IMG/VR virus record: IMGVR_UViG_3300047496_000311 | Direction: 5' to 3' (one strand) | Source: a virus | DNA: 38,324 nt | Part shown: in pieces, positions 14,540-38,324 of the stretch | Numbering within the stretch: the stretch's first letter is position 1 | Layout of the letters: every line of letters starts with the position of its first letter | Notes under the pieces: model-generated | What the model was told of the DNA's origin: nothing | Database searches by the model: none | What the model saw: the letters and a program-made list of their open reading frames with translations, nothing else | Translations under genes and position numbers: made by a program

Positions 14540-14579
14540 AGCACCAAAGAGCGCTAACTCTTCGGTGCTTCTCTTTATT
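14540..14579 (+). terminator. rho-independent terminator
   Basis: agcaccaaagag (14540..14551), cgctaa, ctcttcggtgct (14558..14569); 12-bp stem with 1 mismatch, then ttctctttatt. Confidence 0.55.
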
Positions 14580-14607
14580 GACTATGTTCTGGTTTTCTCG
14601 CTATTAT
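14578..14607 (+). promoter_or_regulatory. sigma70-like promoter for the capsid/late operon
   Basis: TTGACT (14578..14583), 18 nt, TATTAT (14602..14607). Confidence 0.5.
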
Positions 14608-14613
14608 TTGTCC

Positions 14614-14659
14614 GACGCATTGAGCCTCGTCACCTCGGACGCAACAAGCCTCGTCACCT
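14614..14659 (+). repeat. two 22-nt direct repeats in the capsid mRNA leader
   Basis: gacgcattgagcctcgtcacct (14614..14635) and gacgcaacaagcctcgtcacct (14638..14659), period 24 nt, 19/22 identical. Confidence 0.8.
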
Positions 14660-14702: not shown

Positions 14703-16283
14703 ATGTCAATTACGACTACTTCAACGCTACCAGCACCAGTACAGCAAAGCTTTAGCTATAAGCTGCTGTCGGTGCCGGTGCCTAATATGATCCATAAGAT
14801 CCCTGCTATGAAAAAGCAGATGCCTCGAAATGGTGGTACAACGTTGCGTATGAGAAGATATAATCCTTTAAATACAGCAATGGTTCCCCTTGGAAATAGT
14901 GGCATCACTCCTCCACCACAAAATTTAACTGCCGTGGATATTGACGCTCAGATCTCATTTTATGGGACTTACGTTCAAATTAACGAGCAAGTGACCTTGC
15001 AAAACCAAGATCCAGTTCTTAATGAATGTGCTGCACGTTTAGGTGTTTCTCTTCGTCAAACCGAAGACCAATTAACCTCAAATATGCTCGCATCTACTGC
15101 TTCATTTATCAACTGCGTTGGCGGTGTTAATGGCGACGTTCCGACAGAATTAACTCGTTCGGACGTTGATGAAGTGGTTCGTGCTCTTTTGGGCAATAAT
15201 GCTTACACCATCATGGATAACATTGAAGGTGATTTGAAATTCGGTACAGCGCCTAAAAAGAATGGGCGCTTTAAATCTTTTCTGATTGACTTAGAAGCCC
15301 TATGGGGTGATAAGGCGCAAGCAAGTTTATACTGTGCAGCGTGAACGACTAAGTGAAGAGACCTCGAAAGAGGATGCGATAGTCTGACCTCTATGGAAAC
15401 ATAGAGAGGGAGATCCGAAGAGGTTTCCCCGCCACGCAAGTGGTCATTAAAGTAACAGAATGGTTCGTGATGCTTACTTTGCATTATGTCATACCGATTT
15501 AACAGCAGATATGGATAATATTGCTGGTTTCATACAAAAGAACCAATATCCATCACCAATGAATGCACTGCGTTCAGAGTGGGGTTCTATTGGAAACCTT
15601 AGATTCTTAGTGTCTTCAATTGGCAGCGTTTTCCAAAATGCGTCCAACTTAGGTGCTAATATCTACAATATTTTCTGTGTTGGTATGGAGGCTAAAGTGT
15701 TAGGCCTCATAAAATTTTGGGTAATTGACTTGGAAACCGTAGTGGCTTCTAGCTAACCGGTGACAAGGGGCAAGCGCAAGCAGCCTGAACGACTAAACCC
15801 TGAGACCCAGAAATGGGATGTGATAGTCTGACCTGCATGGAAACATGCAGAGGGAGATCCGAAGAGGTTTCCCCGCCACGCAAGTGGTCATTAAAGTAAC
15901 AGAATTGTATGCATGTATAGAGCAAGATGGATATAGTGCTTCGTTCATAAACTAGATATGTGAACGTTAAATCTTGGGTAATTGACTTGGAACCCGTAGT
16001 GGCTTCTAGCTAACCGGTGACAAGGGGCAAGCGTGATTGCAGCCTGAACGACTAAACCCTGAGACCTCGAAAGAGGATGCGATAGTCTGACCTCTATGGA
16101 AACATAGAGAGGTGACCTGAAGTGGAAGCCCGCTCGCAAGAGTAGTAACACGTGTGATATAGACCGCCGATATATGATGGGCCATTGGCACTTAACGCAT
16201 CTGTAGGCTATAAAATGGCAGAGGTGCCTCGGATATGCAATGATTTATGGGTCCTAAATCTACGCTGCACCTTAGCAGTTTAA
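14703..16283 (+). CDS. major capsid protein (HK97-fold, N4 gp56-like pattern), four exons: join(14703..15254, 15463..15693, 15908..15948, 16157..16283) = 316 aa
   Basis: Exon 1 motifs: GGTTLRMRRYNPL...ITPPPQNLTAVDIDAQISFYGTYVQINEQV. The spliced junctions read GTAP|VRDAYFALCH, CVGMEA|YACIEQDGYSASF, then I-YRPPIYDGPLALNASVGYKMAEVPRICNDLWVLNLRCTLAV. Exon lengths 552+231+41+127 = 951 nt, in frame. Track ORFs 14703..15344 and 15460..15756 are exon plus intron read-through. Confidence 0.8.
15255..15462 (+). ncRNA. group I self-splicing intron 1 (208 nt, no ORF)
   Basis: P1: exon gcgccu (15249..15254) pairs with gggcgc (15264..15269), with a U.G pair at the splice site. P7 is gacta (15347..15351) with tagtc (15380..15384). 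P8 is CCTC-gaaa-GAGG (15362..15373). P9 is CTCTATG-gaaa-CATAGAG (15389..15406). CCAC-gcaa-GTGG hairpin. Terminal G at 15462. Possible P10: gaau (15260..15263) with exon 2 guuc. Confidence 0.8.
15694..15907 (+). ncRNA. group I self-splicing intron 2 (214 nt, no ORF)
   Basis: P1: exon gaggcu (15688..15693) pairs with ggccuc (15703..15708), U.G at the site. Same gaacgactaa ... gatagtctgacc core. P8 is CCCA-gaaa-TGGG and P9 is CTGCATG-gaaa-CATGCAG, both compensatory relative to intron 1. Terminal G at 15907. Confidence 0.8.
15949..16156 (+). ncRNA. group I self-splicing intron 3 (208 nt, no ORF; splits a codon)
   Basis: P1: exon cguucau (15942..15948) pairs with gugaacg (15960..15966), U.G at the site. 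Same core as introns 1 and 2. CTC-gcaa-GAG hairpin. Terminal G at 16156. Exon 3 ends AT and exon 4 starts A, giving an Ile codon and the only open downstream frame. Confidence 0.75.
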
Positions 16284-37643: not shown

Positions 37644-38198
37644 TCACTTACTCGCGTAGTCCAGAACCTCACTAAATTTACTCCATGGCATCTCCTCAAG
37701 CCGTGAAATATTTAATCTTTTTAAGATTGCTAACTCTTTTTCCTTATTGTTTTGCAGTTTGAATCGAAGCAATCCAGCCTGTTTATCTGAGATGGTATTA
37801 CTCTTTGACGCTACTTCTCCATCATTATCAGCTTCGTCATCCTCTGCCGCTAATCCCAACAGCAACATAATGTGATACCGAGAATGATAGGTGCATGAAC
37901 CACCAAATGCCTGGTCATTACTTTGTGGATTATCTGCCGGAGTCAATGTAGAGACTGATGAGATGTACTGACCAGTCTCAATGTGAACGACGATGGTCTT
38001 TAACGCTTGTTTTTCACCAATGTGACACAACTCCTGGAAAAATTTTAATCCGTGCTTAGAAGTCATTTTTGACACGGTTTCAATTATCTGGGATCGAGAG
38101 GCGTAGGTACTTTTATGGCCCTTGGAGTCTTTCCGTATGATAACCCCAAACTCCTTGTGCATGGCATCAAGAGCTGCCATTATTTTATTTAGTTCCAT
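37644..38198 (-). CDS. erf: Erf-family single-strand annealing (recombination) protein
   Basis: Start taken at the ATG at 38198 (MELNK...) after gggaga. KSTYASRSQIIETVSKMTSKHGL...VVHIETGQYIS...QAFGGSCTYHSRYHIMLLLGLAAEDDEADNDG matches the ERF pattern (kY.Ya.l..i...v...l.khGl; GSa.TY.rRY.l...lGi..eDDD). Confidence 0.75.
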   Translation of the reverse strand: MELNKIMAALDAMHKEFGVIIRKDSKGHKSTYASRSQIIETVSKMTSKHGLKFFQELCHIGEKQALKTIVVHIETGQYISSVSTLTPADNPQSNDQAFGGSCTYHSRYHIMLLLGLAAEDDEADNDGEVASKSNTISDKQAGLLRFKLQNNKEKELAILKRLNISRLEEMPWSKFSEVLDYASK

Positions 38199-38324
38199 AA
38201 TTATCTCCCAGTAAATCATAATGGTCTTTCAGAAAGTTTATAATCTTAAACATAGAATAATGGTGCGGCTTGGTCTGGCCACAAATAAAGCGTCTCAGTG
38301 TATTGATATTGATATTGATGTTCC
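38185..38324 (-). CDS. 3' portion of the junction-spanning HTH gene (second representation of 1..127 plus the last 13 nt with the stop)
   Basis: The reading frame from 236 continues through the repeat and ends ...GDNYGTK-TAA at 38187..38185, overlapping the erf start. Confidence 0.6.
   Translation of the reverse strand, partial: NINININTLRRFICGQTKPHHYSMFKIINFLKDHYDLLGDNYGTK
38198..38324. repeat. terminal direct repeat, identical to 1..127
   Basis: See the feature at 1..127. Confidence 0.95.

Follow-up and report, generated by a model that had tools for sequence, protein, structure and literature searches.

Three predicted compact group I introns without open reading frames in the major capsid gene of an uncultured tailed phage

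Introduction

Group I introns are already known from phages, and those known, including some that lack an open reading frame (ORF), have been reviewed together with "collaborative homing" (PMC3984707). In this work we analyzed a 38,324-nucleotide (nt) stretch of viral DNA, IMG/VR record IMGVR_UViG_3300047496_000311, referred to in the following as the window. Its major capsid gene is interrupted by three elements of ≈210 nt, which very probably are compact, ORF-less group I introns on the sense strand of the gene, in the complete ≈38.2-kilobase (kb) genome of an uncultured tailed phage. The elements had been picked out in an earlier note, made from the sequence alone.

The td and nrdB introns of phage T4 share with the window introns a P1 helix ending in a U.G pair, the P3/P7 pseudoknot, P4–P6, P8, P9 and a terminal G, and in an alignment to the Rfam group I model RF00028 the classical P, Q, R and S core sequences are recognizable in the window introns. 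The T4 introns are ≈0.6–1 kb long, however, whereas those of the window are ≈210 nt, have no endonuclease ORF and lack P2 and P7.1/P7.2, the criteria for subgroup IA2 (the T4 td type). When a 12-kb T4 stretch was searched with R1, a covariance model built from the three window copies, the two top hits were nrdB (26.7 bits, E 1e-5) and td (22.5 bits, E 1e-4), with the next at E 0.16. The likeness to td proposed in the earlier note is thus only a distant one.

Other phages have several group I introns in one gene. Orf142 of the Staphylococcus phage Twort has three, and exon skipping is reported there (Landthaler & Shub 1999, a title listed in PMC6669764). Compared by description, the two systems are alike in having three group I introns in a single phage gene, but Twort is a large Staphylococcus myovirus, unlike the 38-kb phage of the window. 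The Twort ribozyme has P2 and P7.1/P7.2. Since exon 3 of the window gene is only 41 nt long, exon skipping is a risk here too. In the Delta and Zeta groups of crAss-like phages, introns divide the capsid gene into five fragments (PMC7886860), again several group I introns in a phage major capsid gene. Those introns were recognized by their endonuclease domains, and hence carry ORFs, and the genomes are gut phages of 145–192 kb, in contrast to the ORF-less introns of the 38-kb window. Like the window gene product, crAss-like capsid proteins are of the N4 gp56 type.

In the Jug group of jumbo gut phages, 2513 group I introns with an average length of ≈206 nt are described, and metatranscriptome reads confirmed splicing for 37 of 76 predicted introns (PMC12880540). 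Judged by description, the size class and the insertion into essential phage genes are the same as in the window; the Jug phages, however, have genomes of 360–402 kb and infect Bacteroides/Phocaeicola, and the genes named are terL, nrdD and DNA polymerase. The capsid intron of mycobacteriophage LittleE is spliced, according to reverse transcription PCR and N-terminal sequencing, between an exon-end U and an intron-end G, and a related 265-base-pair (bp) intron without an ORF lies in a tail gene of BAKA (PMC3706429). The LittleE intron contains a LAGLIDADG ORF on the bottom strand, as does one relative of the window introns (L061, below), but LittleE and BAKA have one intron per gene, another capsid family and other hosts.

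The earlier note had called the arrangement in the window unusual. It is less so in view of the Twort, crAss-like and Jug precedents, and among relatives of this phage the gene can hold as many as four full introns. What is added here is the breadth of the intron family, its poor visibility to annotation and its ≈20 sites in the capsid gene. In a full-text literature search of incomplete coverage, neither this family nor its spread through N4-gp56-type capsid genes of small phages was found to have been described.

Results

Removal of the three elements restores one capsid frame

The reading frame that opens at position 14703 of the window ends at 15344, and more open stretches follow downstream in other frames. 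Four exons were delimited:

14703..15254, + strand: capsid exon 1, codons 1–184; the last six bases, GCGCCT, are the exon strand of P1 of intron 1
15463..15693, + strand: capsid exon 2, codons 185–261; the last six bases, GAGGCT, are the exon strand of P1 of intron 2
15908..15948, + strand: capsid exon 3, 41 nt, codons 262–274 and two bases of codon 275; the 3′ end, (C)GTTCAT, is the exon strand of P1 of intron 3
16157..16283, + strand: capsid exon 4, from the last base of codon 275 to codon 316 and the TAA stop

Joined together, these exons form a 951-nt ORF of 316 codons. The junctions in the product are GTAP/VRDAY, GMEA/YACIEQDG and SASF-I-YRPP, with intron 3 splitting codon 275, as the earlier note had it, and the corresponding junction-spanning peptides would be GTAPVRDAY, GMEAYACIEQDGY and SASFIYRPP.

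A homologue search with the 316-amino-acid (aa) product gave 2508 matches. The best 120 of these are uninterrupted proteins of 313–317 aa with 84–91% identity, many of which carry the source name "N4-gp56 family major capsid protein". When the product was aligned with 11 uninterrupted homologues (84–91% identical), all sequences were colinear, without insertions or deletions, and the residues at the junctions were invariant. The NCBIfam profile TIGR04387 matched the spliced product with 150.2 bits (cut-off 60), residues 4–312 corresponding to profile positions 1–322 of 324, while the unspliced 213-aa ORF matched positions 1–183, as far as the first junction. This end-to-end match and the gap-free alignment bear out the N4 gp56-like assignment made in the earlier note. 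PHROG 1357 (major head protein) also matched (E 6e-32), and Pfam Phage_capsid_4 did so weakly. As regards the HK97 fold named in the earlier note, an AlphaFold2 model, made from a shallow alignment of 12 near-identical sequences, had a mean predicted local distance difference test score of 28, and a sequence-profile search of the PDB returned one weak capsid match, 9d82_A (E 0.14).

The DNA of an intron-less relative, L001 (38,375 nt; L numbers designate individual loci), aligned with the window exons and left three clean insertion points. In this empty allele, sites 1 and 2 have an A in place of the T that the occupied allele needs for the U.G pair. Together with the gap-free homologue alignment, the intron-less allele provides independent support for the junctions. 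A junction search under the rule that the exon ends in T and the intron in G, combined with colinearity with the spliced product, yielded exactly the three coordinate pairs of the earlier note; this is a consistency check rather than independent evidence, because the reference had been built from those coordinates.

Gene calls on the window contig report only pieces of 213 and 98 aa and leave the remainder uncalled. In public protein collections, clusters P0136–P0143 contain many capsid fragments of 77–124 aa on long contigs. This is the pattern that would be expected of intron-split genes, the cause being confirmed for the window contig only.

Anatomy of the introns

Written out on an alignment of the three window copies, the elements have the following features:

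15255..15462, + strand: intron 1, 208 nt, no ORF, phase 0 after codon 184; terminal G at 15462
Helices of intron 1: internal guide sequence (IGS) GGGCGC 15264-15269; P3 15276-15283/15353-15361; P4–P6 15290-15342; P7 15345-15351/15380-15385; P8 15362-15373 (GAAA loop); P9 15389-15406 (GAAA loop); P9.1 15408-15415/15422-15429; P9.2 15431-15435/15440-15444 (GCAA loop); conserved GUAACA tail
15694..15907, + strand: intron 2, 214 nt, no ORF, phase 0 after codon 261; terminal G at 15907
Helices of intron 2: IGS GGCCTC 15703-15708; P3 15715-15722/15797-15805; P5a extension 15743-15755; P7 15789-15795/15824-15829; P8 15806-15817; P9 15833-15850; P9.1 15852-15859/15866-15873; P9.2 15875-15879/15884-15888
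15949..16156, + strand: intron 3, 208 nt, no ORF, phase 2 inside codon 275; terminal G at 16156
Helices of intron 3: IGS GTGAAC(G) 15960-15966; P3 15972-15979/16056-16064; P7 16048-16054/16083-16088; P8 16065-16076; P9 16092-16109; imperfect P9.1 16111-16130; P9.2 16132-16135/16140-16143 (GCAA loop); short-tail variant

All three elements are homologous, begin with AAA and end with G. Each has a P1 helix of 6–7 bp with a U.G pair at the splice site: GCGCCU/GGGCGC, GAGGCU/GGCCUC and (C)GUUCAU/GUGAAC(G). P2 is absent: P1 and P3 are separated by only six unpaired bases, and the alignments to RF00028 have deletions where the model has P2. P7.1/P7.2 are likewise absent, P8 beginning directly after the 3′ strand of P3.

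The helices differ among the copies in ways that preserve pairing. P3 is UUC/GAA in one form and GGG/CCC in another, P4 is CUUA/UAAG or CUUG/CAAG, and P6 is GCGC/GCGU or GGGC/GCCU; introns 2 and 3 have a P5a extension of P5. P7 consists of A, a bulged C and GACUA, paired with UAGUCU. Both P8 and P9 are capped by GAAA loops and contain compensatory differences between copies. In introns 1 and 2, P9.1 is a clean helix of 8 bp with the loop CGAAGA. P9.2 has a GNRA loop. The 3′ end is formed by a conserved GUAACA, 3–6 further nt and the terminal G. All of the sequence statements in the earlier note, from the coordinates of the elements, their first and last bases and P1 to the shared P7, the GAAA-capped P8 and P9 with compensatory changes and the GCAA-capped P9.2, agree with this anatomy.

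Free-energy folds of each element recovered P1, P3, P4, P5, P6, P8, P9, P9.1 and P9.2, in keeping with the group I reading of the earlier note. The core pattern GAACGACTAA-N20-50-GATAGTCTGA occurs three times in the window and not at all in 100 shuffles. A check proposed in the earlier note, a search with RF00028 over a 1.2-kb region, matched all three elements, although at scores of 25.8, 25.2 and 23.9 bits (E 3e-4 to 1e-3), below the gathering threshold of 50 bits. Of the computational checks that the earlier note listed as possible refutations, none went against its reading; each favored it or was uninformative. In a search of the whole window with all 4227 Rfam families, the only matches at E<=0.1 were the three of RF00028 to these elements.

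No ORF fits within the 208–214-nt introns, and an ORF in a peripheral loop, the criterion for a homing-endonuclease intron, is lacking in the window; among the relatives, L061 has one of LAGLIDADG type. Antisense ORFs of 58–93 aa in the introns were considered and rejected, as they recur through repetition of the DNA and a 14-nt insertion or deletion between copies breaks their frame. The P4 pairing given by Rfam (UG/CA) was dropped in favor of the P6 pairing (GGGC/GCCU), which covaries strongly.

Covariation, splice-site boundaries and orientation in relatives

The core pattern matched at least 120 IMG/VR contigs and 48 stretches in species-representative genomes. Searches with R1 gave 161 matches in 100 sources including the window, where only the three known copies were found, 33 matches in 24 further loci and 54 in the 48 genome loci. 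The introns of this family are typically 197–229 nt long.

Among 142 distinct sequences aligned to the model, 90.9% of cells hold standard pairs, compared to 63.0% after shuffling and 39–46% when the partners were slid by 1–3 columns. Changes on both sides were seen for 41 of the 44 modelled pairs, and none of 500 shuffles reached any of the observed covariation measures. All six pairs of P1 covary, its last pair being U.G in 87 of the 142 sequences, the commonest state; the IGS thus varies together with each local exon. P7 is almost invariant, with a few double changes from A-U to G-C or U-A at two pairs. At the sequence level, the guanosine-binding site is conserved, with the bulged C present in 129 and the adjoining G-C pair of P7 in 133 of 150 sequences. 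In 15 full-length copies, 10 of the 13 pairs of P9.1 and P9.2 covary.

The boundaries were examined in capsid homologues with strong flanks by combining 5′ ends within 4 nt of the model prediction with 3′ ends within 260 nt. For 28 of 28 high-confidence junctions, the best colinear excision included the predicted site after a U and an end at G. All R1 hits inside capsid homologues (75/75) lie on the coding strand. What the relatives show in covariation, in U...G boundaries and in strand preference fits the group I interpretation of the earlier note.

Insertion sites and relationships among the introns

About 48 of the viral loci selected by the core pattern carry a homologue of the capsid gene, broken into two to five pieces detectable by BLAST. 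Intact capsid ORFs could be reconstructed for L076, with four introns, for L054 and L165, with three each, and for others. When the reliable cases are pooled, there are ≈20 distinct insertion positions in the 316-codon gene, occupied by closely related copies, each with its guide sequence matched to its own exon. The distribution is patchy: 35, 34 and 32 relatives lack an intron at window sites 1, 2 and 3, respectively. Of the relatives, only L046 has an intron at site 1 and only L059 one at site 2; L059 also has an intron 3 nt upstream of window site 3.

The introns do not group by site. Those of the window are 74–82% identical to one another outside P1. They are each other's nearest relatives, at 0.81–0.82 identity outside P1, and are closer to one another than to same-site introns of other phages. 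Their similarity is a patchwork: introns 2 and 3 are nearly identical in P3–P6, introns 1 and 3 are identical in P8–P9 (40/40 positions), and introns 1 and 2 show no difference from P9.1 through the 3′ end, which points to recombination between copies.

The family also occurs in other genes, including capsid genes of two further, unrelated families, the P22-coat-like PF11651 type (L079, L029, L019) and phrog_9953 (L077, L010, L042), tape-measure genes (L097, L062, L157), and the genes for a class II ribonucleotide reductase (L052) and NrdD (L027). The tape-measure gene of L157 belongs to a prophage of Sporomusa aerivorans DSM 13326.

With no endonuclease gene in the introns or among the 46 window ORFs of at least 90 aa, spread would probably rest on recombination and moves to new sites. 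One route would be recombination between co-infecting phages, for which the genome encodes an ERF recombinase and RusA. The second would be rare moves to new sites, with reverse splicing as the classical, unproven candidate; according to a review (PMC3984707), that route has no direct experimental support.

Some members of the family are associated with endonucleases or are longer. Some copies (L093, L087) have a GIY-YIG ORF immediately upstream. Longer members have insertions in the P6 loop: L061 6506-7305, L076 5712-6100 and 6128-6487, L063 3881-4240, and L033 8480-8826. The insertion in L061 is a LAGLIDADG endonuclease ORF on the reverse strand, and the other long members have unrelated ORFs of 50–75 codons; several of these are Cys-rich, and their starts fall at a conserved point of P6. 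The idea that introns of 347–389 nt with two model hits might be twintrons was discarded for the one that was examined, L076 5712-6100, which is a single intron with a P6-loop insertion of ≈170 nt.

Strong members (97–105 bits) were found in cultured Bacillota, namely in Paenibacillus isolates (L139 6314-6501, L156 725-907, L174 7020-7209) and in Virgibacillus profundi (L144 1161-1346 and 1758-2024). In the three Paenibacillus genomes, the same open frame of only 8 codons runs into the intron, and the host gene may not be protein-coding. In Virgibacillus, a family member is located ≈400 nt from a second intron that passes the Rfam threshold.

Among 50,697 phage records, a megablast search with the locus gave no match, and blastn with intron 2 found only 30-nt matches in J8/7–P7, in Lactobacillus phage LBR48 and Aeromonas phage AS1. 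These scored weakly with R1 (34 and 26 bits, respectively). In LBR48 (L126 2427-2531), the large terminase is annotated in two pieces around an "endonuclease"; in AS1 (L125 2960-3031, 38.2 kb), the match is flanked by two hypothetical proteins. In both phages, a group I intron has probably escaped annotation.

Proposed splicing mechanism

In the mechanism that we propose, the capsid gene would be transcribed as a single pre-mRNA in which each intron folds into P1, the P3–P9 core with its P3/P7 pseudoknot, P9.1 and P9.2. A free guanosine, bound at the G-C pair beside the bulged C of P7, would attack after the exon U of the P1 U.G pair; the terminal G of the intron would then occupy the guanosine site, and the exons would be ligated. 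Three such removals, independent of each other, would yield a 951-nt mRNA encoding the 316-aa capsid protein of the N4-gp56 family, whereas unspliced RNA would give only the truncated 213-aa product. The 41-nt exon 3 would be needed twice, in the 3′ reaction of intron 2 and in the P1 of intron 3. Catalysis, its efficiency and timing, and any regulatory role that the introns might have are what we infer from this anatomy.

Several observations weigh against active splicing introns in the window. Because the alignment used for covariation was fitted to the model, its pairing is inflated; with slid partners, however, pairing collapses although that bias is retained, which argues against the fit as the cause. 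P9.1 of intron 3 is reduced to ≈5 pairs and an internal loop, and this intron may be the least efficient of the three. P10 of intron 2, read by eye, is weak (≈2 bp). The frame of exon 1 continues for 30 codons into intron 1 before a stop, and translating ribosomes could therefore disturb the folding of that intron. At the gathering threshold, Rfam finds nothing in the window or in 26 related loci. That cut-off is unreliable for phage introns, since the proven T4 introns td (40.3 bits) and nrdB (35.7 bits) also fall below 50 bits with RF00028 (L296, T4 NC_000866 136000-148000); annotation at the curated threshold misses even these textbook cases.

Alternative explanations

The introns might be of group I by descent and yet need a phage or host protein, or each other's help, to fold or react, in which case a protein-free splicing test would fail. 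This we consider unlikely, though it has some basis: the ribozymes are very compact, lacking P2, a peripheral P5abc and P7.1/P7.2; introns 2 and 3 have the weak P10 and imperfect P9.1 already described; and three near-identical cores within 900 nt could misfold together. The GNRA loops L8, L9 and L9.2 and the conserved L9.1 are, on the other hand, the usual means of self-stabilization, and no maturase-like ORF lies in or beside the introns. Introns of ≈200–250 nt, such as those of Azoarcus and Anabaena tRNA and the Twort ribozyme, self-splice or are catalytically active on their own. Crystal structures of the Twort and Azoarcus ribozymes are cited in PMC3984707.

A further possibility is a defective genome in which the capsid gene is a pseudogene and the elements are dead relics of introns, or insertions of another kind. 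The exons, however, contain no stops or frameshifts, the junction residues are those of intact homologues, each IGS fits its own exon, and core pairing is kept by compensatory changes. The genome is a complete circle that recurs in several samples, and a phage lacking its capsid protein would neither persist nor become abundant enough to be assembled. The fragmentary gene calls and the sub-threshold Rfam scores are what can be said for such a genome, and we find it highly improbable.

As direct repeats of ≈210 nt with internal hairpins, the elements also resemble DNA-level repeats of the MITE or REP type, or stretches passed over by translational bypass, rather than RNA introns. Such repeats would not be expected to occupy the sense strand in 75 of 75 copies, to follow U...G at 28 of 28 junctions or to have a covarying pseudoknotted core, and the junctions lack terminal inverted repeats and target-site duplications. 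Bypass fares no better, as the take-off and landing codons do not match (CCU/GUU and GCU/UAU). We know of no precedent for a ribosomal hop of 208–214 nt without matching take-off and landing codons, and this whole class of explanation is barely credible.

An artefact of assembling a metagenome that contains repeats has a negligible chance of being the cause, given that the three copies differ among themselves and are each flanked by unique exon sequence, that the identical 213-aa exon-plus-intron first ORF was assembled on contigs from several independent sequencing runs, and that dozens of unrelated assemblies are interrupted likewise. Compact group I introns that splice from the capsid transcript are therefore the reading that we prefer.

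A core-less mini-element after codon 88 in relatives

At least 10 relatives, though not the window, contain an insertion of 29–59 nt directly after codon 88 of the capsid gene, at TTY TAC GGT/. Three carriers have been delimited:

L061 6229-6263: mini-element after capsid codon 88
L045 966-999: mini-element after capsid codon 88
L017 6353-6382: mini-element after capsid codon 88

The others are L121, L015, L046, L044, L050, L072 and L188. The insertion has stop codons, and its length is mostly not a multiple of three. It carries GUGCCGUA, which pairs with UACGGU of the exon in a P1-like hairpin with a U.G pair at the junction, and it always ends in G. In six of the 10 elements, the 3′ half forms a clear, covarying helix of 9–10 bp with the downstream exon, in the variants GUUUAUCUG/CAGAUAAAC, GUUUAAGAU/AUCUUAAAC, GUUUAUUGU/ACAAUAAAC and GUUCAAGAU/AUCUUGAAC; in the remaining four (L044, L050, L072, L188), this pairing is partial or absent. 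There is no catalytic core, and a full-length intron is always found 27–48 nt away.

Codon 88 is GGT in 10 of 10 alleles with the mini-element, compared to 6 of 29 uninterrupted Gly-88 alleles (30 alleles compared). Removal of the mini-element together with the full introns gave intact ORFs in five independent contigs. Translational bypass of the gene 60 type was rejected, as the triplet before the resuming codon is never GGN. A search of viral contigs with the pattern TACGGT-N3-25-GTGCCGTA gave mostly chance matches, and only cases filtered by context were used here. The mini-element may be a helper-dependent, core-less group I intron.

Genome context

The ends of the window overlap exactly over 127 nt (1-127 = 38198-38324), which indicates a complete circular assembly of ≈38.2 kb; the whole window corresponds to ENA ERZ12293048 scaffold_981_c1, whose source samples include the runs ERR9963788 and ERR9963794. 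The genome encodes a terminase, a P22-type portal, DnaB, a primase zinc finger, ERF and RusA. No HNH, GIY-YIG or LAGLIDADG domain was found in the 46 window ORFs of at least 90 aa, and no close cultured relative of the genome was found. Assignment of a host from genome bins was abandoned: the relatives were binned with, among others, Chitinophagaceae, Nitrososphaeria, Legionellales and Parachlamydia, unrelated phyla that suggest binning noise.

Upstream of the capsid gene are two signal-like features, both identified by consensus match only:

14549-14570: terminator-like hairpin, preceding the promoter-like site
14578..14607, + strand: promoter-like TTGACT-18-TATTAT, just upstream of the capsid gene

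Between the promoter-like site and the gene, at 14611-14658, is a tandem pair of 24-nt repeats, TCCGACGCATTGAGCCTCGTCACC and TCGGACGCAACAAGCCTCGTCACC.

Discussion

For the annotation of the window, the analysis amounts to a correction: the 213- and 98-aa fragments and the uncalled remainder are parts of one ordinary capsid gene. Beyond this genome, environmental phages contain a large family of ≈200-nt introns that Rfam does not detect at its curated threshold. In public assemblies, these introns break up genes for capsid proteins, tape measures and ribonucleotide reductases, so that gene calls and protein clusters are distorted; marker-gene surveys based on such calls and clusters are presumably affected.

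With many related ORF-less copies, whose guides have been re-matched to their exons, in one short gene, the family is an unusually dense natural data set. The copies at multiple sites have a bearing on the long-standing, unproven proposal that reverse splicing carries group I introns to new sites. It is a tentative possibility, which we would not favor as yet, that a single lineage of ORF-less mini group I introns moves within phage capsid genes at the RNA level and has given rise to helper-dependent descendants. If the core of a neighboring or excised intron splices the mini-elements, these would be non-autonomous group I introns, of which, to our knowledge, none have been described; if spliced, the codon-88 element could be a new class of intervening sequence. 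For the phage of the window itself, splicing of the three introns as proposed would mean that the production of virions depends on three RNA splicing events.

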